A stretch of 25,675 nt of DNA from Candidatus Helarchaeota ASGARD archaeon Hel_GB_B. Lineage in GTDB: Archaea; Asgardarchaeota; Lokiarchaeia; Helarchaeales; HEL-GB-B. Position numbers and translations under genes: made by a program. This document shows positions 529 through 17,029 of the stretch, one piece after another (the stretch's first letter is position 1; each line of letters opens with the position of its first letter). The stretch is from the NCBI GenBank assembly GCA_005191425.1, contig SUPR01000047.1, positions 1 through 25,675 of the forward strand, written 5' to 3'. The notes below the pieces were generated by a model. That model did not search any database. It had not been told where the DNA came from and worked only from the letters and a program-made list of their open reading frames with translations.

Positions 529-1959
529 TCAACTTATTTTATTTAATAAAGCCTTAATACTATTTTCAATTAAATTAATCCTGTATTTACTTGTCATAGT
601 TTTTAAAATTTGGTTTCTTATGAACTTAGGGTTTGATAAAAATTTTGCATATGCATTCACCATTATTTTTTCCAATATTTCTTCCCCAAGGACATTAGGT
701 AAAACTTCAAAGACTCTAATATACTTTTTCCAATCGCGTTCTCTTGAAACAATGTTTTTTTTCTCGAGTTCCTTCCATAAATCTGAACCCATTAGTATGT
801 ATAAATATTGATATTGAATAAAAGTTAAATCTAATTTCATACTAAATTTTATTGTATTATTAATTTCATCTAAAGTTTCTCCAGGACCACCGAGGATAAA
901 TAATCCAATAATATTTTCGATTCTTGCTTTATGCGCATTTTTTATAGCTTGTTGTGATATTTCTGGTGTGATCCTCTTATTATAATAATTTAACATTCTT
1001 TTATTAGCACTTTCAATTCCAAATAATACTGATTTACAGTTTGATTTTTCCATTGTCCTTAGTAATTGTATGTTTGCTTGGTCAACTCTACCTTCACAGC
1101 CCCATGAAAAGTCGAACTTTTCTTTTTGCATCATTAAGCATAAGTCGACTGTTCTTTTTTGGTTTAAGACAAAACAATCATCAACAAAACTTATTTCTTC
1201 ATATCCACAATCTTCTAAATATTTTAATTCATCAATAACATTTTTTAAAGACCTTACCCGTAAAACTCCTTTTAAACCTGAATTTATATGAATTCCACAG
1301 AACTTGCAATTAAAGGGACAGCCTCGAGAAGTGGCTAGTATGGTAAATTTTTTTCCACTCATTGTATAGTTATAATCAATAAGATTTCTATCAGGGAACG
1401 GAATTTCATCAAGGTCTTTAATGGGTTTTGCATTAGGTGTCATCTTTATTTTATTATCTTTTCTGAAAGTAATCCCCCGGACATTTTCAAGTTCGTCTAA
1501 TTTATTTTTTTCAATAACATCTATTAAATTTGGTAAAGGTTTTTCGGCTTCGCCTCTAACGCAATAGTCTACAAAAGGGTAGTCCTTTAAAATCAGGTCG
1601 GAACATAAAGTTGCTAAAATATTTCCAACAATTAAATTTATGTTAGGATTCCAATTTTTAATTAATTTTGCAATTTCCATTGAAATATTAAAAGAGGGGG
1701 AAAGAGGCGATAGACCTACAATGTTTGGATCGAATTTCTTTATAGATTCTAATATTTGAGCTGGACTAGCACCAGTGACATCTTGATCTAAAATTTTTAC
1801 ATTATGACCTTCACGGGATAAAATTTCACCTAAATATAATAGACCTAGCGGTGGATAAGTATTTTGCCTTTTTACGATTTTATTATTCCTATTTTCTATT
1901 TCTACTGTTGGTGAAGGGTTGATTAAGATAATCTTCAGTATTAAAACACCTATTTTCAA
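529..1959 (-). CDS. Cobalamin-binding radical SAM protein (class B methyltransferase-like), paralogue 1
   Basis: N-terminal B12-binding domain (PPLGLLYL, VDYCVRGEAE), SRGCPFNCKFC (CxxxCxxC), FVDDCF, LFGIES. ORF-track start is TTG 1959; CTG 1938 is a better-supported start (see findings). Confidence 0.9.
   Translation of the reverse strand: MKIGVLILKIILINPSPTVEIENRNNKIVKRQNTYPPLGLLYLGEILSREGHNVKILDQDVTGASPAQILESIKKFDPNIVGLSPLSPSFNISMEIAKLIKNWNPNINLIVGNILATLCSDLILKDYPFVDYCVRGEAEKPLPNLIDVIEKNKLDELENVRGITFRKDNKIKMTPNAKPIKDLDEIPFPDRNLIDYNYTMSGKKFTILATSRGCPFNCKFCGIHINSGLKGVLRVRSLKNVIDELKYLEDCGYEEISFVDDCFVLNQKRTVDLCLMMQKEKFDFSWGCEGRVDQANIQLLRTMEKSNCKSVLFGIESANKRMLNYYNKRITPEISQQAIKNAHKARIENIIGLFILGGPGETLDEINNTIKFSMKLDLTFIQYQYLYILMGSDLWKELEKKNIVSRERDWKKYIRVFEVLPNVLGEEILEKIMVNAYAKFLSNPKFIRNQILKTMTSKYRINLIENSIKALLNKIS
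1947..1951 (-). promoter_or_regulatory. Candidate Shine-Dalgarno AGGTG, 8 nt upstream of CTG 1938
   Basis: Minus strand reads ata-GGTG-ttttaata-CTG AAG ATT ATC TTA ATC AAC; matches the archaeal SD consensus (GGAGGTGA). Confidence 0.45.
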
Positions 1960-2494
1960 TCCATATCATAATAAATGCTGAATTTTTAATTAAAATATTG
2001 TGATGACTTTATTTTTTTATCTTAATTTTATTTTAAATACATTTAATTTTTTTGTTGATTATTTATAATTTTTGATTTTATCCTTTTTAATAAATTTTAA
2101 ATTGCTTGAAATTCGCAGTAGTTTTTGAAACTCTGAAGTTCTAAATCGTCTAAAATTCAAGAAAAATTGAATAAAAAACAAATATTTTTAAATTATAATA
2201 AAGTAATATTCTAATTTTGTTTGAATTAAAATTTTACTAGTAAATTTCTTAATTAAATTTAAAATTCTTTTTTCAGATGTTTTATCATCCTTATATTTAA
2301 TTTGAATAAATGGAAATTATATTATTATTATAAATAACGGACATTTTGACCTTATTTAGAAGGTAAAAATCATTCCAATTCTTTAAAATTCTCAATTTTA
2401 TGAATTTAGAATGTACAATTGAAATATAAAATAAATGTTTATTTTCTAATCGCTAGAAAAATTAAAATTATATCATAAAATTTTAGATAATAAG

Positions 2495-3970
2495 ATGAAA
2501 ATACTATTAATCAATCCCAGTTCTAAGATTTTTGATTCATATATTGACCGGACAGATTATTATAATAAGAAGCATTTATTTACTGCATCAATGCCACCAA
2601 TGGGCTTATTATATTTGGATGCAATTCTAGATGATTCTGGATATAAAACAATGATTATTGACCATTCAGCAACTGGAATTTCGTTAAATTCAATGTTAAA
2701 GAAAATTAAGAATTTTGACCCAGAAATAATCGGTATATCAGTTTTATCTAATTCATCGCAGACATCTAATAAAATTGCGAGAAGTATTAAAAAATTGAAT
2801 CCAAATATTAAAATTGTTTATGGAAATTGTCATGCAACGATATGGGGAAAAAGGATACTTAAAAATTATCCTTTTGTTGATTATTGTGTAAAGGGAGAGG
2901 GCGAATATACTTTTTTAAAATTACTTGATGCAATTGAACACAATAAATCAATGGAAAATATTGATGGCTTGGTATATCGAAATAATGGTCATATTGTAGA
3001 AAATAAGGATGCTCCACTTATCGAGGAACTTGATAAATTGCCATTTCCTAATAGGGAAAAATTAAATATTGAATATTCATGGGATTTTGGGGGCTTCAAA
3101 TTTGCGCAAGGGAGATTTTCAACAATTCTATCATCGCGTGGATGCCCTTTTAAGTGTATTTATTGTATGAATAGTTTATTAGCCAGACATAAATGGCGGT
3201 CAAGGTCTATTGAAAATATAATTGAAGAGTTATTATTATTAGAAGAAATGAAGTACAAAGAAATATTTTTTTTGGACGATAATTTTACATTAAAAAGAAA
3301 TAGAGTAATTGAGATAAACGAGAGAATTAAAAAAGAAAAAATTGATATTGTATTTTCAGCTAGAGGAAGAGTTGATCAAAATAGCGGAAATATGTTCAAA
3401 TCTATGGTAGAAAAAGGTAATTTCAAATATATCTCTTTTGGGGTGGAAAGTGGCTCACAAAAGATTCTTGATTATTATAATAAAATGATTACTCCACAAC
3501 AAGCATATGATACGCTAAAGTTAGCGAGAAAGGCGGGGTTTGATTTTATCATGGCAAATTTTATGGTTGGAGCCCCTTATGAATCCTTAAGCGATATATA
3601 CCAGACCTTAAAATTTGTCTTAACTGCAGATATAAGCTGGCCTGTAATTACAATTGTACAAGCTGTTCCAGGGACTAAAATGTGGGTTGATCTTCAGAAA
3701 ATAAAATCATTAAACATAGATAAATATTGGGAAACTGGAGTCCCTGTAATTGACCTGAATATTAATGGTTATACGAGAGAAATTCTAAATAAATTAATAA
3801 TAGAAACATATTCCCGATTTACATCATTTAGAAGATTTAAGTTCTTATTCAATGAATTTCTTACATCTTTAAAAAGTTCATACAAATTAAAAAAGGTGAT
3901 TAACCTTCTTAGAAATTTAAATTTACTTAAAGGTATTTATTCAGAAATTGCTGATGGTATGAGCGCTTAA
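2495..3970 (+). CDS. Cobalamin-binding radical SAM protein, paralogue 2
   Basis: MKILLINP start, PPMGLLYL, YGNCHAT, VDYCVKGEGE, SRGCPFKCIYC, FLDDNFT, FGVESGS. Confidence 0.92.
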   Translation: MKILLINPSSKIFDSYIDRTDYYNKKHLFTASMPPMGLLYLDAILDDSGYKTMIIDHSATGISLNSMLKKIKNFDPEIIGISVLSNSSQTSNKIARSIKKLNPNIKIVYGNCHATIWGKRILKNYPFVDYCVKGEGEYTFLKLLDAIEHNKSMENIDGLVYRNNGHIVENKDAPLIEELDKLPFPNREKLNIEYSWDFGGFKFAQGRFSTILSSRGCPFKCIYCMNSLLARHKWRSRSIENIIEELLLLEEMKYKEIFFLDDNFTLKRNRVIEINERIKKEKIDIVFSARGRVDQNSGNMFKSMVEKGNFKYISFGVESGSQKILDYYNKMITPQQAYDTLKLARKAGFDFIMANFMVGAPYESLSDIYQTLKFVLTADISWPVITIVQAVPGTKMWVDLQKIKSLNIDKYWETGVPVIDLNINGYTREILNKLIIETYSRFTSFRRFKFLFNEFLTSLKSSYKLKKVINLLRNLNLLKGIYSEIADGMSA

Positions 3971-3995
3971 AATTATAGATAGACAAAATAAAATT

Positions 3996-4211
3996 TTAAT
4001 CTTCTGGAATCAACATCCTAAAGATACCTGCCATTCCACCAAAAGTGAGCATTTTTACTGTATCGTCTCGCCCATACTCTCTAAAAGAATATTTAATACG
4101 TTCTTTCAAGATCTTTGAAATTGCAATTATTCCAATTGATATTATCGGAAATAAGAATAATTCTAAAAGAGTAAATATAAAAAACGAAATTTTTCTTTTT
4201 ATGTGAGTCAT
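3996..4211 (-). CDS. Small membrane protein A (71 aa), paralogue of 7249..7494
   Basis: ATG start, hydrophobic residues ~8-32, fills the gap between two genes, 23/71 ungapped identity with the 81-aa ORF at 7249. Confidence 0.8.
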   Translation of the reverse strand: MTHIKRKISFFIFTLLELFLFPIISIGIIAISKILKERIKYSFREYGRDDTVKMLTFGGMAGIFRMLIPED

Positions 4212-4232
4212 TAATAGAATTATTTAATAGAT

Positions 4233-4244
4233 ACTTAAATAAGT
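4233..4244. promoter_or_regulatory. Candidate bidirectional TATA-like/operator element ACTTAAATAAGT
   Basis: Dyad ACTTA-AA-TAAGT centred in the 57-bp gap between divergent starts 4211(-) and 4269/4275(+), about 27 and 30-36 nt from them. Confidence 0.35.
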
Positions 4245-4268
4245 TATCATCAATTAAATCATTAATGA

Positions 4269-5693
4269 GTGCTTATGAAAATCTTATTACTCCACCCAGG
4301 TATTCATTATTTCCGCGAAGGGAATAAATTAATAGTGAAAAAAAAGACAGTCATTACAGACCATACATTACCGCTGGGTATTTTATATATTGCAGAAGTT
4401 TTAAAAAGAAATAACATTGAAATAGAAGTTTTTGATCATGCGGTAATCAATTTATCAGTTGATAAATTAGTAAAATGGATTATAAAAAATGATTTTGACC
4501 TTGTTGGATTATCTGTAATGGGTGGGTCTTTTATAACAGCCATTGAAATTTCTAAACGTCTTAAAAAATTAAACCCAAACATTATAATAGTATTTGGCGG
4601 AGTTCAGTCTACACTCTGTCATGATAGAATAATGGAAAAGTATAACCAGGAAGTAGATTATTGTGTTCGTGGTGAAGGAGAATATACATTTTTAGAATTA
4701 ATTGAAGCGCTTAGGAAAAATAAAGAGATAAAAGACGTCCGTGGAATAACTTATTACGAACATGGTATTGTAAAATTTACTGAAGATAGGCCCGAGTTAA
4801 AAAATCTTGATGATTTACCAATTCCTGATAGGTCAATCCTTACAAAAAAGTTTAGATATTTACTTGGGGGAAAAGTAAGTCCGTTAATATCATCTCGCGG
4901 CTGTATTTATAATTGCAGGTTCTGTTCGTGCGGAGTTTTGTATAAACGTCGGTTAAGATTCAGGAGCGTAGAAAATGTAATTAAGGAATTAATATATTTA
5001 GAAAATGAAGGGTTTAAGGAAATAAATATAGTTGATGATTGTTTTACAATCAATGTAAAAAGAGTTCATAAAATATGCGAGCAAATTAAAAAAGAGAAAT
5101 TAGATCTTAAATGGCACTGCCTCTGTAGGACCAATATTGGTGATTATAATATGTACAGACATATGGCTACTGCAGGGTGTGCTACTGTATCTCTGGGTAT
5201 CGAAAGTGCAAATCAACGAATTCTCGACTATTATGATAAAAAATCAACTGTCGAGAATGCAAAAATAAGTGTGAAAAATGCTAATAAAGCAAGAATACCA
5301 AATGTTTATGGAGGATTTATAATAGGAGCGCCAGGTGAGACGGTTCAAGAAGTTTTAAACACAATTAAATTTGGTCTTAAATTAAATTTGTCCTTTATGC
5401 AATTTCAGTTATTAAATGTTTTACCCAAAACTCAAATTTTTGATGAATTTGTCCGTAAAGGTTGGTTAGATCCATCACAAACATGGGAACAGCCAGTTAT
5501 TGCAGCAGATGTTTGTCCAACAGCTGTCCCTAAAAAAATTCTTGAAAAAATTGTTGAAGTAGCGTATATACACTTTGTCGGAGATTCAAAAAGAATTATT
5601 AAAGAATATCTCCGGTCAATGAGAGCAGAATATCGATTTCAGATATTTAAGAATATACCCGAGCAATTGAAAAAAGTATTAAGTAAATATTAA
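4269..5693 (+). CDS. Cobalamin-binding radical SAM protein, paralogue 3
   Basis: LPLGILYIA, VDYCVRGEGE, SRGCIYNCRFC, IVDDCFT, LGIESAN. ATG 4275 (MKILLLHP) matches the start of paralogue 2. Confidence 0.92.
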   Translation: MLMKILLLHPGIHYFREGNKLIVKKKTVITDHTLPLGILYIAEVLKRNNIEIEVFDHAVINLSVDKLVKWIIKNDFDLVGLSVMGGSFITAIEISKRLKKLNPNIIIVFGGVQSTLCHDRIMEKYNQEVDYCVRGEGEYTFLELIEALRKNKEIKDVRGITYYEHGIVKFTEDRPELKNLDDLPIPDRSILTKKFRYLLGGKVSPLISSRGCIYNCRFCSCGVLYKRRLRFRSVENVIKELIYLENEGFKEINIVDDCFTINVKRVHKICEQIKKEKLDLKWHCLCRTNIGDYNMYRHMATAGCATVSLGIESANQRILDYYDKKSTVENAKISVKNANKARIPNVYGGFIIGAPGETVQEVLNTIKFGLKLNLSFMQFQLLNVLPKTQIFDEFVRKGWLDPSQTWEQPVIAADVCPTAVPKKILEKIVEVAYIHFVGDSKRIIKEYLRSMRAEYRFQIFKNIPEQLKKVLSKY

Positions 5694-5705
5694 TGTGATT
5701 TTTTA

Positions 5706-7235
5706 ATGACAGGCTTACGAATTTTAGGTATGTCTTTTTCAAAATTAATTAACAAAATACTTTATTCATATAAAGATCCATTATTAATACAGAGAAAAAT
5801 TTTAACAAACATAATAAAGGTAAACAAAAACACTTTATTTGGAAAAATTCACAAATTTAGCCAAATTAAGTCAATTAAAGATTTTCAGTCCCATTGTCCC
5901 ATTTACACTTATTCTGACATTGAACCATATATTAAAAAAATGTTAAATGGTGAAAAAAATGTACTAATTGGGAGTAAACAAATTTATTGGGGGAAAACTG
6001 CGGGTACTTCTGGAACTCAAAAATTTATACCAATAACAAGAAAAAGTATATTTAATGCATCTAAATGCTCTTTACGTATAATTTTATCATATATTTCTGA
6101 AAATACTAAAGAGAATTCAAAAATTCTTGATGGTATTATGTATCTATATTCATCCGATCCATATTTGGGGGAAATAAATGGTCTGCCTGTTGGTTTTGGA
6201 ACGGGTGCATTTGATCAATCATCCTCAACAGGTTTTTTAAGATTTTTAAAATTAAATCTGTATTCTAATTCCAAGTTTTACAATATTAAAAACTTTGATA
6301 TAAGGACAAACATGATGGTACAAGATTGTTGTAAATTAAATATAACATCTTTTTTTGGAGTAACTTCAATATTAATCAATTTTATGGAGACGATACTACA
6401 AAAAGCGCCAGATCTTGGAATTCAAGCCGATAAGTTAATAGATATTTTTCCCAATTATAAATTTTCAATTATGGGTGGAGAACCGCTACAGTTTTATAGA
6501 AACAGATTAAGACATGTTGTGGGTTCTGAAGTTGACTGTAGAGAATTATATGGTGCAACCGAAGAGATTATTGCTGCCCAGTTTGGAAGTAAGTCTAGTT
6601 TGACTCCTATGTTGGACGCAAACTTTTTTGAATTTGTTCCAGTTGATAATCCCGAAGAAAGATTACTTATAAATGAAATTAATAAACACAAAGAATATTT
6701 TATAATTATTACAAATTATAATGGATTATATTCATATAATTTAGGTGATATTATTGAATTTGTTTCTACTACACCGCCTTTATTGATCTTTAAAAGAAGA
6801 AAAGACACAATTAATTTGGCTTCAGAAAAAATAACTTTAGATCAACTTTATCGTAGTATTAGAAATGCAAATCAAAAATTTGGTAGTAAAACAAAGGATT
6901 ATATCATATGTGGTATATTTCACCCCAAACCTCGCTATATATTATTGATTGAATTTTTCCCTAATTCACATCCAACAGATTATAATAAATATTTATTTGA
7001 ATTTAATTCAAATTTAATGAAATATAGTAGCGTATATGCCGATTTAATTAAGGTACAGCATGCTATTTCCCCTCCTATTATGTGGGTTCTTGAAAATGAT
7101 TCGTTCAAAAAATATCAAATTCAAATTTTAAATAATGGACATCCTGCTGGTCAAGCTAAATTTCCTAGAATAACTGTAAAAAAAGAAATTCTTGAATATT
7201 TTTCTAAAAAAATTATTAAAAAAGTAGAGATTTAA
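5706..7235 (+). CDS. GH3-family acyl acid-amido synthetase (adenylate-forming ligase)
   Basis: N-terminal Q..IL..IIK.NKNT.FGK.H.F segment, motif I KTAGTSGTQKFIPIT, motif II LYGATE, FFEFVP, motif III YSYNLGDII, C-terminal GQAKFPR. Confidence 0.88.
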   Translation: MTGLRILGMSFSKLINKILYSYKDPLLIQRKILTNIIKVNKNTLFGKIHKFSQIKSIKDFQSHCPIYTYSDIEPYIKKMLNGEKNVLIGSKQIYWGKTAGTSGTQKFIPITRKSIFNASKCSLRIILSYISENTKENSKILDGIMYLYSSDPYLGEINGLPVGFGTGAFDQSSSTGFLRFLKLNLYSNSKFYNIKNFDIRTNMMVQDCCKLNITSFFGVTSILINFMETILQKAPDLGIQADKLIDIFPNYKFSIMGGEPLQFYRNRLRHVVGSEVDCRELYGATEEIIAAQFGSKSSLTPMLDANFFEFVPVDNPEERLLINEINKHKEYFIIITNYNGLYSYNLGDIIEFVSTTPPLLIFKRRKDTINLASEKITLDQLYRSIRNANQKFGSKTKDYIICGIFHPKPRYILLIEFFPNSHPTDYNKYLFEFNSNLMKYSSVYADLIKVQHAISPPIMWVLENDSFKKYQIQILNNGHPAGQAKFPRITVKKEILEYFSKKIIKKVEI

Positions 7236-7248
7236 GGAAGATTATAAA

Positions 7249-7494
7249 ATGGGCAAATTATCATCTATCGTTTTTAGAATTTTATTATTACTATTAATAT
7301 TATTTTTTTACCCTACAATTTTTATTGGGTCTTTTGCTTTATCTAGACTAATGAATCTACGAATAATACAATTGATGAAAAAATATGGGCGCGAAGATGT
7401 CATTAAAGTATTATTGATGAGTGGTTTCAGTGGATTTATAAGATTATTATTCAGTAACCCCGAAAGATCTGATAGAATTAAGCATAATTCATAA
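7249..7494 (+). CDS. Small membrane protein B (81 aa), paralogue of 3996..4211
   Basis: ATG 13 bp after the GH3 stop, preceded by purine-rich AAGGAAG; hydrophobic residues ~7-31; shares the YGRxD..K.L...G..G..R.L pattern with protein A. Confidence 0.82.
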   Translation: MGKLSSIVFRILLLLLILFFYPTIFIGSFALSRLMNLRIIQLMKKYGREDVIKVLLMSGFSGFIRLLFSNPERSDRIKHNS

Positions 7495-7522
7495 AAATAT
7501 ACAAAAAAAATATAAAAGAAAT

Positions 7523-8422
7523 TTAAAGCCATTTAATTTTTAATTTTTCTCTTGGAGGGGCTCTGAGAAACCGTATTGCGGGATATCCTATAATTAAAAC
7601 GCCTTGACATACCCTATTGTTTTTTATTCCTATCCATTGTCTTAACTTTGCATCTCTTTTTATTGCTTCTTGAGCGAATCCAATCCAGCATGTTCCTAAT
7701 CCTAAAGACTGTGCTGCTAGCATTCCATGTGTAATTGCAATTCCTGCATTATTACCTTCCATTCCACCATATTTTGGTAAGTCCAAGACAATAATACACG
7801 GCGCATTGTAAAATATTCTATCAATCCCCATTTCATAACTTCTAATCAGGTCATCAACGAACTTTTTTGTTTTAGGATCAGTTAAAAATTTCTTTTTATA
7901 ACCAAAAACAAAAAATCTAAAGATATTTTTAAATTTTAAAATAGTTCTAAAGAAGTAGAAAGATTTCATTATTTGTTTTTGAAAATATTTTATTTTATCA
8001 GGGTCTGTAATAACAGTATAATTCCAATCTTGTAAATTACTGGCACTGGGTGCATATCGCATAGCTTCTAAAATTAATTCAATTTTCTCTTTAGGGACTT
8101 TTTTATTTTGAAATCGTCTGATTGACCTTCTTGACCTTATAAATTTCATTAAATTATTTATATCTATAATTTTAGACGGGTCTTTTATCTCTTCAAATTC
8201 CCATAAATTGTCATCAATTTCCTTGTCCCACATGATGGCATTTCTTGGACATATTGCAATACAGTGCCCACATAAAATACACGCATTAAATTCATCGTCA
8301 AATACTATTTTTGGGCCTTCTTGGTCATTAGTTTCTTCTTTTCTATATAATTTTGAAGGACATTCTTTAATGCACTCTTCGCACCTAATACATTTATTTA
8401 AATCTACGCCAATAATTTTCAT
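7523..8422 (-). CDS. Nitroreductase-family flavoprotein with N-terminal 2x[4Fe-4S] ferredoxin domain
   Basis: CIRCEECIKECP and CILCGHCIAICP; FMN-binding RRSIRRF and APSASNLQ; LAAQSLGLGTCWIG. Confidence 0.92.
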   Translation of the reverse strand: MKIIGVDLNKCIRCEECIKECPSKLYRKEETNDQEGPKIVFDDEFNACILCGHCIAICPRNAIMWDKEIDDNLWEFEEIKDPSKIIDINNLMKFIRSRRSIRRFQNKKVPKEKIELILEAMRYAPSASNLQDWNYTVITDPDKIKYFQKQIMKSFYFFRTILKFKNIFRFFVFGYKKKFLTDPKTKKFVDDLIRSYEMGIDRIFYNAPCIIVLDLPKYGGMEGNNAGIAITHGMLAAQSLGLGTCWIGFAQEAIKRDAKLRQWIGIKNNRVCQGVLIIGYPAIRFLRAPPREKLKIKWL

Positions 8423-8531: not shown

Positions 8532-9716
8532 TTAAGTAAATTTGGATAGAATTTTTCCTATCCAAGTTTTACCTTCACTCCAGTCATTATCGTGTTTACT
8601 GACCCAGAGGAAACATAACCAGCTAATAGTAGACCCCATAAATGCGGTTAATGATGGTACATAGGGTTCTCCAACACCGAAATTGATAGCAAATACAAAT
8701 GCAACTTCAAGGAATGCTGGAATTAACCATACAAATCGCTTCTTTTGTATATAACAGATTATTGCAAGAAAACCGATAAAACCTAAGTGTAAATATAGGT
8801 TTCCTGCTAATCCTAATGGAACATAGAACCATATATCAACAAATTCAATTCCAACAGCGATCAGTCCAGCAGTTAATAGCAATGTAGTATCATTTCTTTT
8901 TTCAGAATTTAAATGTACCCTTTTTAGATATTTATTTTGCCAATCAACTCGCATAAAGATATATGTAGCCACTATTAATATTGAACCAATAACCCATAAG
9001 GCAGGAAATGCAGTTAATCTATTTCTAGAAATTGGATAATCGGTTTGAAATAGTGTTAAAGTCTTTCTTGAACCAACTCCACCATCCCAAGTCTCAATAA
9101 GTCCGCAAGTTAAGTCTAGTTTTGCAATAACTACTTTATTTTTGGATGAGTCATATATAGCTATTTGAAAACTAGCTTGTGCACCTAAAATAGGCCACAG
9201 TTTTTGGGATGAAGGCCACCATACTAGTCTTTTTTCCACAATAGCCGTATAATTACTTCCAGCTGGCCCCATAAACCCTGTGGGGTCGATTACCTTAAAA
9301 ATGGCCCCAGGTTGTATACCAAACCCAGATGTTAATTGTAATAATGGATTTGATACATGTACCCACCAAATTGAATAATTACCCTTCAATTTACCGTTTT
9401 GATAAACAATTCCATTTGGATTTACAAAAAAAGAACCTTGAATTTTATTTCCTATTTTAATTGTAACATTAGAATGAGTTTGATTTATAACAGTTGAAGT
9501 TACTGATAACACTAAATCATTAGTTTGCCCCATTGTCCCATTATTGTAATAAAAATAGGCATATCTATTTGTCTCAAAAAATTTTGGGTCTTCTTGATTT
9601 GGCCCAAAAGGCAATTTTATCATTATTTGGTTGAACAGAAATGCCCCTAACGCAGCTGATAACACCAGAATTAATATTAATAACCTCGTTTTCCAATTTA
9701 ATGACATAATTTTCAT
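8532..9716 (-). CDS. Hypothetical integral membrane protein
   Basis: 394-aa ORF: one N-terminal TM segment, a ~200-aa soluble Gly/Asn/Thr-rich domain, about five C-terminal hydrophobic segments. No family recognised. Confidence 0.75.
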   Translation of the reverse strand: MKIMSLNWKTRLLILILVLSAALGAFLFNQIMIKLPFGPNQEDPKFFETNRYAYFYYNNGTMGQTNDLVLSVTSTVINQTHSNVTIKIGNKIQGSFFVNPNGIVYQNGKLKGNYSIWWVHVSNPLLQLTSGFGIQPGAIFKVIDPTGFMGPAGSNYTAIVEKRLVWWPSSQKLWPILGAQASFQIAIYDSSKNKVVIAKLDLTCGLIETWDGGVGSRKTLTLFQTDYPISRNRLTAFPALWVIGSILIVATYIFMRVDWQNKYLKRVHLNSEKRNDTTLLLTAGLIAVGIEFVDIWFYVPLGLAGNLYLHLGFIGFLAIICYIQKKRFVWLIPAFLEVAFVFAINFGVGEPYVPSLTAFMGSTISWLCFLWVSKHDNDWSEGKTWIGKILSKFT

Positions 9717-12579: not shown

Positions 12580-13758
12580 TTGAAATGGTGGTTTTCTTTG
12601 AATTATTTTGTAGAAAGAACTCTTAAATTTCAAGAAAAAATGAAAAAATCGATGGTCGATTATTCAATTATTTTCAATTCAAGGCATATTTACTATTTTA
12701 CGGGTACAGCTCAACATTCAATTTTATTAATTCCCTCAAACTCCGAACCTATTTTATTCGTAAGACGCGATTTTGATCGAGCTAAAAAAGAATGCGTTAT
12801 AAAAGATTTGGTCCAAATCAAATCAACTAAAGATATTTTTAATGGAATTAAGGATTTCGATAAAAAAGAATTATTAATTGGAATTGAATATAATTTTTTA
12901 CGAGTTGGACAGTTTTTTTCAGTAAAAAAAGAATTGAAAAAATCTAAATTCGTTGATATTTCGAGTACCATTCAAGAATTAAGAATTATTAAAGATGATC
13001 TTGAAAAAAAGCTAATTAGAAATAGCGCAAAAATTAGTGAAAAAGTCCAACAAATTGCAAGAGAATATTTGCGTCCAGGTATTACTGAATTAGAATTAGC
13101 AGGTGAAATTCAAAGAGAAATCACAAAATATGGGAGTATATTTTCTTACTTCGACGGCTATTGGGCAAGAACGCCGTTTATTATAGCTTCTGGAGAGAAT
13201 TTGTGGGCAAGAAGCGACTTTCCCCCAGTTTTATCTGGAGTTGGCCCATGTAATGCTGAACCACACGGACCTTCAAATAGAGTAATTAAATCTGGCGATA
13301 TTGTAGTTGTTGATGTTGCTACTGTAATTGAAGGATATACTGCAGATCATTCACGAACTTATTATGTTGGAAATAAAATATCTGATAAATTTAAAAAGAT
13401 TCATAATATTTTATTAAAAGCGCGACTAAAAGCAATTAATTTTATGCAAGCCGGGAACAGTATTGCAGAATTTTGTAAAATTATATTGAAAAATATTCCT
13501 GTTGAATTTCGGGATTATTTACAAGGATACGACCAATTTAAAGAGGGATTTGGACACGGAATTGGATTATGCCTTGATGAATTGCCTTTTTTGATTTTAA
13601 ATACTAACCAAAAATTCCAAAAAGACATGGTAGTAGCATTTGAACCTAAAATAATAATTCCTGGATGGGGTGCAGTAAATTTTGAAGATGATTTTATTAT
13701 TAATAGAGAAGTCCCACCAGAACAAATAACTAATAGTCCTATTTACTCTTTTTCCTAG
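12580..13758 (+). CDS. M24B Xaa-Pro aminopeptidase/prolidase family peptidase
   Basis: All five metal ligands present: VVVDV, ADHSRT, GHGIG, FEPK, FEDD. TTG 12598 (GGTGG 6 nt upstream) is a likelier start than TTG 12580. Confidence 0.9.
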   Translation: MKWWFSLNYFVERTLKFQEKMKKSMVDYSIIFNSRHIYYFTGTAQHSILLIPSNSEPILFVRRDFDRAKKECVIKDLVQIKSTKDIFNGIKDFDKKELLIGIEYNFLRVGQFFSVKKELKKSKFVDISSTIQELRIIKDDLEKKLIRNSAKISEKVQQIAREYLRPGITELELAGEIQREITKYGSIFSYFDGYWARTPFIIASGENLWARSDFPPVLSGVGPCNAEPHGPSNRVIKSGDIVVVDVATVIEGYTADHSRTYYVGNKISDKFKKIHNILLKARLKAINFMQAGNSIAEFCKIILKNIPVEFRDYLQGYDQFKEGFGHGIGLCLDELPFLILNTNQKFQKDMVVAFEPKIIIPGWGAVNFEDDFIINREVPPEQITNSPIYSFS

Positions 13759-15154
13759 CGAAAATTCTTTTCAAATAAATTGAAACCCGTAGCATAATAT
13801 CTTTTACCATTTTTTCCTCTTCTTTAAATGGCATTAAATAGTTAACGCTATAATCTTGAAATAATTTAATTCTATGACCTGTTTTAATATGAATTCCTAA
13901 AAATTCTTCGGTATCATCTTTTTCATTCTTTAATTTTACAGCATATAGTGGCAAATTACCCGGTTTAACTGAGATATTATTAAGAAAATTTATGGCTTTT
14001 TTAATTTGGTCTATAGAAAGTTTTCTTTGAATATCTGAAGACCCTTCAATATATATTTTAACATCTTCAGAATCCTCCATATATTCCGGAAATCTTTCTA
14101 TAATTGAATCTTTAAGATATAAAAATTTACCAGACATATCATCAATTAGAATAGTTTTTTTAATATCAATTTTCTTTTTAAAAAATAGCCATTTTCTCTT
14201 TTTAATTTCAACTAACCCATTCACAATCCAAATAGGATATTGAATAGTATCAACAGACTCTATTTTCATTTGTGGTGGTAATGTACTTTTAAGGTCGAGT
14301 AATAATGATCTATTTATAGTTTCACCAAATCTATCATAAAGCATGTCAATCCACGACCTTCCTATTAAAAAGCCACCAAAAGTTATTAATCCTAATGCTA
14401 ATACAGTTATTATTAACTTAAAATAATCGAAATTAAATAAAGGAGAATAATAAAGGCCTGCAGATATTCCACAAAATATAAAACCAGTTGTAAAATCATT
14501 TAGTTTTGTATATTTTTTAAGTAATGGAGCAGGAGACTTCCAGAAATCTTCGTGCTCCTCGCGTTGCCCACCTTCTTTTATTTTTTCAATCAATAGACCA
14601 TGTCTAATATCATTCCAATCTCTTCCGATAAAAAATGTACTTAATATATTCCCTCCACCACCAATAGCCAGACAAATTATATGGGAAATAGAAGAAGTCC
14701 AAGGAGTAAAGTATGTGATTATCACAGGAATAAACATTATTATCGAAGAAATTATATATAGTACTAGGCCAATAAATCCTTCATGTAGATGGTATTTCCC
14801 AACGCCACTATCTTCCATACCCATATGAAATCTTGACGAATATTTAGGAAGTATAATTAACAAATATACAAAAAAGAATAACATACCAGCATCAGATATG
14901 ACCTGAAATATTACCTTGATATTGTCTATAATTTCTAAATTTAATGTTATAAAATAAAGAATTGCAGAAACGATCATTATTGAAATTGCCAATTTGCCAA
15001 ATTTTTCAATATTTTTGACTATTATTCCAAAATATATTAAGATAAACATTAAGTAAAAATAAAAAATATCATATAAAAATGGAAAAATTATAGTAATTAC
15101 TAAAAAGCTTAGAAAACCTAAAATTAATGCAAAAATTACCCTTTTTTTATTCAT
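13739..15154 (-). CDS. Hypothetical multi-pass membrane protein with internal duplication and soluble C-terminal domain
   Basis: 471-aa ORF with about seven hydrophobic segments in the first ~270 aa and two IGRxWxD-ending units; 3' end overlaps the convergent M24 gene by 20 bp. Confidence 0.78.
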   Translation of the reverse strand: MNKKRVIFALILGFLSFLVITIIFPFLYDIFYFYLMFILIYFGIIVKNIEKFGKLAISIMIVSAILYFITLNLEIIDNIKVIFQVISDAGMLFFFVYLLIILPKYSSRFHMGMEDSGVGKYHLHEGFIGLVLYIISSIIMFIPVIITYFTPWTSSISHIICLAIGGGGNILSTFFIGRDWNDIRHGLLIEKIKEGGQREEHEDFWKSPAPLLKKYTKLNDFTTGFIFCGISAGLYYSPLFNFDYFKLIITVLALGLITFGGFLIGRSWIDMLYDRFGETINRSLLLDLKSTLPPQMKIESVDTIQYPIWIVNGLVEIKKRKWLFFKKKIDIKKTILIDDMSGKFLYLKDSIIERFPEYMEDSEDVKIYIEGSSDIQRKLSIDQIKKAINFLNNISVKPGNLPLYAVKLKNEKDDTEEFLGIHIKTGHRIKLFQDYSVNYLMPFKEEEKMVKDIMLRVSIYLKRIFARKKSK

Positions 15155-16157
15155 TGCTAATATTTCCTATCTTTTTTTTTATAAATTTGTTTTTTCAATT
15201 TCATTACTAAAATATAATTTCTCTTTTAAAATCTCTATTATTTTAAAATCCTTTCTTAGACCATTTATATTTTTTTTAGAAAAATATGAAATTTAACTAA
15301 TAGATCACTTTATTACAATTATAAGTGATTGATTTTATAATCTTAGTGGAATATTTAAAATTGTTTAATAATAACTTGAAATTTCTGTTTCTAAATCTAA
15401 AAATATTTTTCTAAAATTTTTATTTTCGGTTCAATCTTTCTTTTTTAAATTTCAATTTGTTTTTTACTCATGTTTTTTAAATTTTATATTTATTAATCAC
15501 TCGAAACCGGATAAATCATTAATAAATATTTTTTCCTCTATTTTGCTTCCAAATCGATAAATTTTTTTTTTTCATATAATTATTATATTAATTTTCCTAT
15601 TTTTTGACTATTTCCTCTATTTTATAAATATTAGAGAAAATGAAATTTTCCATATTAATTCTTTAGAAATATCCTCTATTTTTATGTTTAATTAACAATA
15701 AACTTTTTTTTTTATCAATTATCTCATTATTAAACCTTATTGCTTTTTTTTTCCTAAATATTTGAAAATTATATATAAATTCATCTATTAGGCACATTTA
15801 TATTTCTACTATATTAAACAAATATATAAATCACATAATTTATTATTTTATATCTCAAATAATTTTCCATTTATTAAAATGATTGATTTATTAAGTAATT
15901 TTTTAATGACGTCTTAAAAATATTGCTTATTTTTGGTATCTTTCTTTCTCAATTATAAAAAACATTTTTTTACTTTAATTTTGAAATAAATTAACATTTA
16001 ACAATAAAATAAAGTTTGAGTTATTTAATGAGTATAAAAAGTATGGTTTGAATTAAAAAATGTTAAAAGACTCTGAAAATCAAGATTCAATTATGGCTAT
16101 AACTAAACTTTTAATGAGTTTAAGGGTCAAACACTCTCTTTTGCTGCTAAATTAGAA

Positions 16158-16304
16158 CTACACTTCTAACTTTCTAAAATATTGGCACTTTTTACAGTTT
16201 TTGTGTTTTGGACATTGTATTCCATTACGGGCGTCTGAAACAATACAAATATATAAAATTTTGCCCTCATTAAGATTATCTTGGGGTTTTATTCCATCTC
16301 TCAT
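16158..16304 (-). CDS. Candidate 48-aa Cys-rich small protein
   Basis: Hand-translated: MRDGIKPQDNLNEGKILYICIVSDARNGIQCPKHKNCKKCQYFRKLEV*; C-x10-C-x5-C-x2-C; below the ORF-track cutoff. Confidence 0.45.
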   Translation of the reverse strand: MRDGIKPQDNLNEGKILYICIVSDARNGIQCPKHKNCKKCQYFRKLEV

Positions 16305-16397
16305 AACTATTTTTTCTAACTTTTATATTTAATGTCCTCTAAATAATAAAATTTCATTATATTAAGATTATATTTTCTTTTATGAAGGAATCAGGCT

Positions 16398-16745
16398 TCA
16401 AGTATTTTCCTCCTCTTTTAAGATTTTAAGTAATCTTTCTTTTAGTGATGGGATGTCTTTTGTTGCTGTATCCCAAACAGCATCTAAATCTACTCCAAAA
16501 TATCCATGTATAAGCTTATCTCTCATCCCGGCTATTTGTTTCCATGGTATATCCGAATATTTATTTATGAAATCTGCTGAATAATTCTTAGTAGCTTCGC
16601 CGATTATTTCGATTTCTCTTATTACAGCATCTTGGAGCATATGATTACTTCTAAATTCTTGAAAGTTTTTTCCCTTAAGATAATCTTCTATTAGGCTAAT
16701 CGCGTCAAGAACGTGTTTGAGGAATACCGTATTGTCTTTTTTCAT
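16398..16745 (-). CDS. hepT: HEPN-domain (DUF86, HepT-like) ribonuclease toxin
   Basis: DAVIREIEIIGEA, IPWKQIAGMRDKLIHGYFGVD with the R-x4-H motif; ATGA overlap with the upstream MNT gene. Confidence 0.9.
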   Translation of the reverse strand: MKKDNTVFLKHVLDAISLIEDYLKGKNFQEFRSNHMLQDAVIREIEIIGEATKNYSADFINKYSDIPWKQIAGMRDKLIHGYFGVDLDAVWDTATKDIPSLKERLLKILKEEENT

Positions 16746-17029
16746 CCCAGCACCAGCTTAGACTCTTTTTCAATTCTATCTCTTAAATATGGACTTATAG
16801 ATGCCTCTGTAAGTAAATCAACCTTTATTCCCAACACATCTTCCAATTCCTGCTCTATTCCCACGATCTCAAGTAAACTTTTTCTTTCAGAAAATTCTAC
16901 AATTACATCCAAATCACTTTCTAGGTTTGCTTCTCCTCTAGCGTAGGAGCCGAATATCTTAATTTTCTTGACCCTGTGTTTTTTCAGTATTTCTATTAAT
17001 TTTTTTATTTTTTTATCCATTTGTTTCAC
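16742..17029 (-). CDS. mntA: Minimal nucleotidyltransferase (MntA-like antitoxin)
   Basis: FGSYARGEANLESDLDV (GS-x10-DxD), LEDVLGIKVDL; directly upstream of the HEPN gene. ATG 17020 is an alternative start. Confidence 0.9.
   Translation of the reverse strand: MKQMDKKIKKLIEILKKHRVKKIKIFGSYARGEANLESDLDVIVEFSERKSLLEIVGIEQELEDVLGIKVDLLTEASISPYLRDRIEKESKLVLG

Follow-up and report, generated by a model that had tools for sequence, protein, structure and literature searches.

A 25,675-nt stretch of contig SUPR01000047.1 from the Candidatus Helarchaeota archaeon Hel_GB_B (hereafter, the window) carries genes for three B12-binding radical S-adenosylmethionine enzymes (rSAM1, rSAM2, and rSAM3), a GH3-family adenylating acid-amine ligase, and two predicted single-pass membrane proteins (smallA and smallB). 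We find that this combination is a conserved cluster of Helarchaeota-type archaea, and that the small membrane proteins pair with subfamilies of radical S-adenosylmethionine enzymes (rSAMs), mostly one to one, rather than with GH3. According to the reading that we prefer, to which we assign a probability of roughly 0.4, the cluster is an uncharacterised pathway in which membrane-tethered rSAMs would tailor a membrane-bound substrate and GH3 would form an amide on the same molecule. Helarchaeota are Asgard archaea discussed in connection with hydrocarbon cycling and eukaryote origins; to our knowledge, their lipids have never been measured in culture and no Asgard GH3 has been studied so far. 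GH3 ligases are best known from plant hormone conjugation and are now known from bacterial ornithine lipids too.

Co-occurrence of GH3, rSAMs and small membrane proteins

The original prediction had listed three intact B12-binding rSAM genes, GH3, two small genes, and a ferredoxin-nitroreductase gene, and all are present. rSAM1 (529-1959, minus strand; 476 aa) and rSAM2 (2495-3970, plus strand; 491 aa) diverge from an AT-rich, 535-bp spacer (1960-2494) that contains no open reading frame of at least 50 aa and no Rfam match and that is presumably a shared promoter region. smallA (3996-4211, minus strand; 71 aa) faces rSAM2 convergently; on its other side, a 57-bp spacer separates it from the divergently oriented rSAM3. 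rSAM3 (4269-5693, plus strand) comprises 474 aa when read from the GTG at 4269; its true start is probably the ATG at 4275, since the database gene call comprises 472 aa. GH3 (5706-7235, plus strand; 509 aa) and smallB (7249-7494, plus strand; 81 aa) follow with intergenic gaps of 12 bp (rSAM3-GH3) and 13 bp (GH3-smallB), spacing that suggests that rSAM3, GH3, and smallB may share one transcript.

GH3, two or three clade-specific B12-binding rSAM genes, and one to three small genes occur together in the sister species of the same genus (G001; G000 is the window's own genome), in two genomes of the second family of the order (G004, which is Hel_GB_A, and G006), and in loci L022, L023/L024, and L025 (L-numbers denote inspected loci or contigs), and the core of GH3, B12-binding rSAM, and small protein is present in every Helarchaeota-type locus inspected. 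The order of genes is rSAM, small (minus strand), rSAM, GH3, small, ferredoxin-nitroreductase in L022, a 527-kb contig, and GH3, rSAM, small, rSAM, small, rSAM, small, GH3 in G004, with a similar order in G006; the G001 locus (L013, contig C114) contains rSAM2, part of rSAM3, GH3, and smallB. Gene order and strands vary among loci, and the three components remain together. Among the seven genomes of the order, GH3 is found in five (G000, G001, G002, G004, and G006) and the small protein in four (G000, G001, G004, and G006), counts that are not independent, the genomes being close kin; family f3 yielded no GH3 and no small protein in either of its two genomes, each 94% complete. The recurrence of the combination in other genomes rules out chance adjacency, and the association that had been suspected from the window is borne out in its relatives. 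The suspicion that no characterised pathway accounts for the components also holds: every NCBIfam equivalog model scores far below its cut-off for the window proteins, and the literature searched yielded no paper combining the terms GH3, radical SAM, and Asgard.

A link to alkyl- or methyl-coenzyme M reductase was considered and rejected. Families f1 and f2 have McrA, as does genome G005 of f3, and G005 has three McrA genes with neither GH3 nor the small protein found, so the overlap is no more than order-level phylogeny. Elsewhere in G000, a McrA-like gene (C103:30835-31227; 609-aa frame) is followed about 4.3 kb downstream by another B12-binding rSAM paralogue (C103:35531-36955), a candidate reductase-modifying methylase unrelated to the GH3/rSAM cluster.

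Pairing of small membrane proteins with rSAM subfamilies

By domain content and, for rSAM3, predicted fold, rSAM1, rSAM2, and rSAM3 are class B (cobalamin-binding) radical SAM enzymes. All three have the class B domain order, with an N-terminal B12-binding Rossmann domain (PF02310, 69-77 bits) followed by a radical SAM core (PF04055, 77-100 bits) containing a CxxxCxxC motif, the cysteines of which (C214/C218/C221 in rSAM1 numbering) are invariant in 43 aligned sequences. Their pairwise identities are 37-40%. An AlphaFold2 model of rSAM3 (predicted local distance difference test, pLDDT, 91) has as its nearest solved folds OxsB, AprD4, TsrM, MgmA, CysS, and TokK, with E values of 1e-20 to 1e-24 and template-modelling (TM) scores by query of 0.64-0.74 for all of these other than AprD4; AprD4 is annotated as a diol dehydratase, not a methyltransferase, and cofactor use and reaction type of the window rSAMs therefore cannot be assumed. 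The best Swiss-Prot match of rSAM3 is PH0819 of Pyrococcus horikoshii, which is uncharacterised (34% identity; TM score 0.84-0.87), and BchE is among the best Swiss-Prot and NCBIfam similarities of the rSAMs. PH0819, HpnJ, BchE, and PhpK are the closest named relatives. The best-scoring curated families, HpnJ (TIGR03471), BchE (TIGR02026), and PhpK (TIGR04479), match over nearly the full length at 157-189 bits and have the same two-domain architecture, and HpnJ and BchE act on hydrophobic substrates; however, the window rSAMs lie far under the equivalog cut-offs of these families, which range from 481 to 600 (best scores, 183.5 against a cut-off of 481 for BchE, 189.1 against 578 for HpnJ, and 167.7 against 600 for PhpK). 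We know of no small membrane partner and no GH3 neighbour for the HpnJ, BchE, or PhpK families. The window rSAMs also have sub-threshold matches to models of methylases of ribosomally synthesized and post-translationally modified peptides (RiPPs), at 140-159 bits for ApyD and 85-108 bits for rSAM_ocin_1.

The 3.5-Mb genome G000 contains about 22 B12-binding rSAM-like frames. In a first tree of G000 paralogues and locus homologues, the three window rSAMs and those of related loci form one clade, apart from the six other G000 paralogues tested (support 97/97). The rSAM tree has four orthogroups: orthogroup I comprises rSAM2 with L022_6754, L013_9825, and L023_4323 (98/96 in the first tree and 94/91 in a later tree); orthogroup II is absent from the window; orthogroup III comprises rSAM1 with L014_6225, L023_2930, and L025_1297 (100/99); and orthogroup IV is the rSAM3 clade (97/97). 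B12-binding rSAM matches on plasmids were rejected as GH3 clusters, the two loci inspected being one glycan locus and one RiPP locus.

The two small proteins of the window are 39% identical over 54 aa (E 7e-12), have no match in Pfam or NCBIfam, and each contain a hydrophobic 19-residue stretch (mean Kyte-Doolittle hydropathy, 2.44 for smallA and 2.53 for smallB); no hydrophobic segment of transmembrane grade was found by hydropathy in the rSAMs, GH3, or the nitroreductase. In all of 14 small proteins from 7 loci, a single 19-residue stretch reaches a mean hydropathy of 2.2-3.1, the C-terminal part carries net positive charge, and cysteine is lacking; fifteen more distant sequences have the same architecture. 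The family is defined by a length of about 65-95 aa, an N-terminal transmembrane helix, a conserved, predicted-cytoplasmic S...GR[DE]..K...G..G region, and a gene beside a B12-binding rSAM gene. Conservation peaks after the helix, at S32, G47-R48, K53, G59, and G62, with S32, G47, and G62 invariant or nearly so; the helical tail carries GR[DE]xx[VI]K and GxxG motifs; and the C-terminal tails are basic and of variable length. smallA, which scores 92 bits against the family profile, is modelled by AlphaFold2 (pLDDT 89) as one long helix, spanning residues 2-46, followed by a helical hairpin of two short helices. Its orthologue in L022 is 70% identical and occupies the same position, and smallB orthologues lie after GH3 in L013 and L022. 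The family is rare: an exhaustive profile search of 1.84 billion representative proteins at E <=0.001 returned 40 representatives, 3 of which are spurious repeat proteins. Within G000 the whole genome contains only the two small genes of the window; in the window, the best candidate for a further one reached 7.8 bits, and the frame immediately downstream of rSAM1 (421-528) reached 5.8 bits. No fusion of a small protein to an rSAM, the object of a Rosetta-stone test, was present among the proteins collected.

The small proteins are more than a pair of copies attached to GH3: clades and adjacency place them with rSAM subfamilies. A profile of the window pair finds three small genes in L014, three in L025, and two in L023, and every small gene in L014, L015, L023, and L025 overlaps an rSAM gene or lies no more than 22 bp from one. 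Clades of small proteins correspond to the rSAM orthogroups beside which their genes lie: clade Z to orthogroup II (98/97), clade X to orthogroup IV (99/96), and clade Y to orthogroup III (97/99), orthogroup III having a small gene directly downstream in L014, L023, and L025. The correspondence extends to an archaeal metagenome-assembled genome with a GC content of 55-57% (L030/L031), in which an rSAM gene of orthogroup II (100/100) overlaps the small gene P0306 by 4 bp and GH3 is absent; P0306 belongs to the matching clade Z, as does P0298, the gene of which overlaps the 3' end of a B12-binding rSAM gene. We conclude that the small proteins belong with subfamilies of rSAMs, for the most part one to one, and not with GH3. 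Since the rSAM-small pair occurs in a distant archaeon without GH3, the minimal conserved unit is a B12-binding rSAM plus a small protein, and GH3 is an addition in Helarchaeota-type clusters. Located 5 bp after the rSAM-small pair in this archaeon (L030:8296-9006; L031:1938-2648) is a gene for a 236-aa protein with a C-terminal Fer4_16 double-cluster domain, which resembles the window nitroreductase in the ferredoxin motif only.

GH3, its paralogues and the surroundings of the cluster

GH3 matches PF03321 (121 bits), PF23571 (52 bits), and PF23572 (43 bits), all above cut-off. Alignment with JAR1 (E 1.6e-22) identifies the motifs TAGTSGTQK(FIP), YGATE, and YNLGD (YxLGD), which correspond to the reference motifs SSGTSxGxxK (P-loop-like), YGxSE, and YRLGD, and 13 Asgard GH3 sequences have, without exception, T98, G100, K106, A284, E286, Y344, and D348. 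Judged from these alignments, the predicted nucleotide-binding and adenylation motifs of GH3 are intact. Its only NCBIfam match, and the only characterised prokaryotic GH3 family that it matches, is OlsH (NF052613), at full length with E 3e-41; the score of 141.5 bits against a cut-off of 620 indicates that GH3 is not an OlsH equivalog. Asgard GH3 sequences form a clade of their own, apart from the bacterial GH3 sequences tested (100/100). The nearest bacterial GH3 genes (a Flavobacteriales metagenome-assembled-genome match and plasmid matches H3 and H5) were rejected as related clusters because they have no rSAM neighbours.

The window GH3 belongs to orthogroup GH3-a, which adjoins the rSAMs. 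A second orthogroup, GH3-b, borders the opposite end of the cluster in both L014 and L023, whereas in G000 it lies on contig C92, and a third, GH3-c, is paired with a 380-aa hexapeptide-repeat protein. In L023 up to three GH3 ligases and a hexapeptide acyltransferase adjoin the cluster, and in L025 a MarR-like gene adjoins GH3; the window cluster has no GNAT-like gene. GH3 is common in Asgard archaea: among 301 genomes sampled it was found in 89, and the small protein was found in only one of those, G000. G000 has two further GH3 paralogues, which share a neighbourhood and are separated by 5 kb (L016; G000:C92:13000-32999); the gene order there is URO-D-like, CobN, ChlI/D-like, GH3-b, a 902-aa glycyl-radical enzyme, an unknown 327-aa protein, hexapeptide-repeat protein, GH3-c, SAM methyltransferase, GNAT, and ABC-2 transporter. 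The pair of hexapeptide-repeat protein and GH3-c is class-wide (L017:8193-13493; L018:7994-13081) and is followed in family f4 by two genes resembling 2-hydroxyacyl-CoA dehydratase (HGD-D), an arrangement that points to a separate pathway of acid activation. In genus g36 of Asgard family f15, four to five GH3 genes are arrayed in tandem (G070:C1:1246-9274; G141:C43:13645-25024; also G060 and G110).

The ferredoxin-nitroreductase gene (7523-8422, minus strand), which encodes a 299-aa 2x[4Fe-4S] fusion with two CxxCxxCxxxCP motifs and PF00881, had been counted as part of the cluster, a membership that does not stand. The gene, convergent with smallB in the window, adjoins the cluster only there and in L022 and is absent from loci L014, L023, and L025; orthologues 56-57% identical in G004 and G006 are on other contigs; and the gene is absent from the locus of the sister species and was not found elsewhere in that genome. 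We rejected it as a cluster member because its orthologues are unlinked and none was found in the sister species. G005, a genome that yielded neither GH3 nor the small protein, has a 45% identical homologue.

Further downstream, orf394 (8532-9716, minus strand; 394 aa) and orf471 (13739-15154, minus strand; 471 aa) are without a match in Pfam or NCBIfam and carry a hydrophobic anchor or signal segment at the N-terminus. Together with genes for a TPR protein, a sulfatase, and an M24 peptidase, they form a separate block of proteins with N-terminal signal or anchor segments that is conserved in close kin only. orf394 was considered as a relative of the URO-D-like genes in L016 and L025 and rejected, there being no similarity. 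From 15155 to 16397 the GC content is about 16%; this roughly 1.2-kb stretch contains no open reading frame of at least 50 aa and no Rfam match, and is followed by overlapping genes for a HepT-like RNase and a MNT nucleotidyltransferase (16398-17029, minus strand), a toxin-antitoxin-type pair. The window as a whole has a guanine-plus-cytosine (GC) content of 27%, encodes a Ras-family GTPase and archaeal-type tRNA synthetases, has homologues labelled Helarchaeota or Lokiarchaeota, and is matched by DNA in hydrothermal-vent and marine-sediment metagenome runs; no RNA dataset with a match to the window was listed. A scan of the window against Rfam gave no riboswitch or other RNA match, and scans for sigma-70 promoters and terminators gave background level only, with models ill-suited to an archaeon.

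Weighing the readings of the cluster

From gene content, synteny, clade pairing, predicted membrane topology, and intact catalytic motifs, we infer a mechanism built on repeated two-part units, in which a cytoplasmic B12-binding rSAM is mostly accompanied by its own single-pass membrane partner of roughly 75 aa. The small protein would bind its rSAM and tether or orient it on the cytoplasmic side of the membrane, where a hydrophobic, membrane-embedded substrate would be modified by one rSAM paralogue after another at unactivated carbons, most likely by C-methylation; and one or more GH3 ligases would activate a carboxyl group on that molecule, or on a precursor of it, by adenylation and couple it to an amine, so that the product would be lipid-like and amide-linked. 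The amide step would resemble that of OlsH, the GH3-like lyso-ornithine lipid synthetase of Singulisphaera acidiphila (PMC12493201), likewise an adenylating enzyme of the GH3 fold from a prokaryote, which links an acid and an amine and yields a membrane lipid; OlsH differs in working with acyltransferases and not with B12-binding rSAMs, and no radical SAM enzyme appears in the OlsH paper (PMC12493201). The radical steps have a counterpart in the archaeal lipid-tailoring enzymes GrsA/B, Gmm, Cgm/Pgm, and Ted (PMC11214058; bioRxiv 10.1101/2025.10.20.683597), which are B12-binding rSAM paralogues as are those of the window, modify membrane lipids at unactivated carbons, and diversify by duplication. 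These enzymes are predicted to be peripheral membrane proteins that bind through their own C-terminus (bioRxiv 10.1101/2025.10.20.683597), and a membrane location is therefore to be expected for such enzymes. Their descriptions set them apart from the window rSAMs, in that no separate membrane partner and no GH3 is described for them. The searches in the papers on archaeal lipid rSAMs (PMC11214058; bioRxiv 10.1101/2025.10.20.683597) used length filters of >=495-500 aa, and the window rSAMs have 472-491 aa.

A complex prediction for rSAM3 and smallA lends weak support to an association, with a score of 0.33 against 0.01 for the best control, at least 72% of contacts shared among runs, and a partner pLDDT of at least 65. 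The mark that this prediction passed was also passed by 58 out of 80 solved complexes and by 2 mismatched pairs out of 110; passes with scores of 0.60 or less were obtained with only 7 of the 80 solved complexes and with both passing mismatches, and such a weak pass is, by the tool's own statement, more often wrong than right unless the pairing is already likely. Several further observations weigh against this mechanism. Orthogroup I (rSAM2) has no small gene clearly its own in L023 and the window, and rSAM1 has none beside it, so the pairing is not strictly one to one in the window; furthermore, the small-protein tree leaves smallA and smallB unplaced between clades X and Y. A large "solo" clade of the same rSAM family (39-40% identical by alignment; present in Bathyarchaeota, Zixibacteria, and others) branches among orthogroups II-IV, and the solo-clade loci inspected have neither GH3 nor a small partner, which indicates that the partner is not needed for catalysis in general. 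The rSAM-small module without GH3 in L030/L031 means that GH3 could serve another step or pathway. In the sister species, L013:8872-9796 compared with window 3996-5693 has a deletion of about 0.76 kb that leaves rSAM3 residues 273-473 and smallA residues 35-69; the stretch contains no Ns, and rSAM2, GH3, and smallB are intact, so either one rSAM-partner pair has truly decayed and the cluster is dispensable there, or the assembly is faulty. Finally, ornithine lipids are stated to be absent from archaea, which are not known to make acyl-amide lipids (PMC12493201).

The same pairing could instead reflect a RiPP-like system, in which the small protein would be the substrate of the adjacent rSAM (for example, by C-methylation) and GH3 would adenylate and amidate its C-terminus or an Asp or Glu residue to yield a membrane-active peptide. 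A short open reading frame beside a radical SAM gene, with matching clades, is the classic maturase-precursor pattern, and the cluster resembles rSAM_ocin_1/ApyD-type RiPP pairs in joint diversification and in having several rSAM paralogues per cluster. The gene overlaps in L030, P0298, and L023 and the sub-threshold matches to ApyD and rSAM_ocin_1 are in keeping with such a system; the near-invariant S32, G47, and G62 could be recognition or target sites; and the complex score of 0.33 against 0.01 fits an enzyme-substrate complex equally well. However, the matches to ApyD and rSAM_ocin_1 score below those to HpnJ, BchE, and PhpK, the orthogroup I rSAMs lack a peptide of their own, and the short open reading frame differs from those of RiPP pairs in encoding a strong transmembrane helix and a conserved, predicted-cytoplasmic tail, with variable basic ends typical of membrane anchors. 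By Pfam, moreover, no recognisable RiPP recognition element (RRE)/PqqD, leader peptidase, or exporter is encoded among the window genes or in the conserved core of L022, L023, and L025, whereas all three are present at a typical RiPP locus of Clostridium estertheticum that includes a related rSAM. We also know of no GH3 enzyme that acts on peptides. The lack of RRE, peptidase, and exporter and the membrane-anchor character of the small proteins argue, not decisively, against a RiPP, which we regard as an unlikely explanation; the balance leans to the small protein being a membrane partner rather than a substrate.

A pathway for a soluble small molecule or cofactor (a natural product or tetrapyrrole-type compound), with the small proteins as accessory subunits (for example, for stability, cobalamin loading, or electron delivery at the membrane) rather than as a means of reaching a lipid substrate, appears to us similarly improbable. 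Such a pathway draws support from the similarity to BchE, which acts on a tetrapyrrole; from the location of the two other G000 GH3 paralogues beside CobN, ChlI/D-like, and URO-D-like genes; from the set of up to three GH3 ligases and a hexapeptide acyltransferase in L023, which resembles stepwise amide assembly; and from the Fe-S protein after the rSAM-small pair in L030 and the nitroreductase adjoining the cluster in the window and L022. But the CobN neighbourhood occurs in G000 only, the Fe-S neighbours are neither conserved nor homologous beyond the ferredoxin motif, an alkyl-coenzyme M reductase link is contradicted by G005, and a transmembrane partner is hard to explain for a soluble product. 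It is also conceivable, though we think it quite improbable, that the rSAM-small modules and GH3 serve different processes and that their adjacency is inherited synteny. The module without GH3 in L030/L031, the occurrence of GH3 apart from these rSAMs across the 89 Asgard genomes, with the small protein found in G000 alone, and the close kinship of the linked genomes all agree with independence. Set against it are the position of GH3 flanking the rSAM block despite rearranged order and strands (window, L014, L023, and L025), with two distinct GH3 orthogroups adjacent; the short gaps from rSAM3 to smallB, which suggest one transcript; and the finding that, within the order, all genomes with the small protein also have GH3 and that neither was found in f3.

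B12-binding rSAMs are responsible for most of the unusual tailoring seen in archaeal membrane lipids and in many natural products, and how such enzymes gain access to embedded substrates is poorly understood. Under the reading that we prefer, in which tethered rSAMs and GH3 act on one membrane-bound molecule, the cluster provides a concrete, testable context for an Asgard GH3. A bolder form of this reading, which we put forward tentatively and hold to be doubtful, is that the cluster represents a new class of two-component B12-binding rSAMs with co-evolving single-pass partners that, together with GH3, build an amide-linked, radically tailored membrane lipid or anchored product. If true, archaea would have their first acyl-amide-type lipid pathway, and radical enzymes a novel route to membrane substrates; a dedicated partner diversifying with its enzyme would be a new organising principle of the superfamily and a genomic marker by which such enzymes could easily be found.

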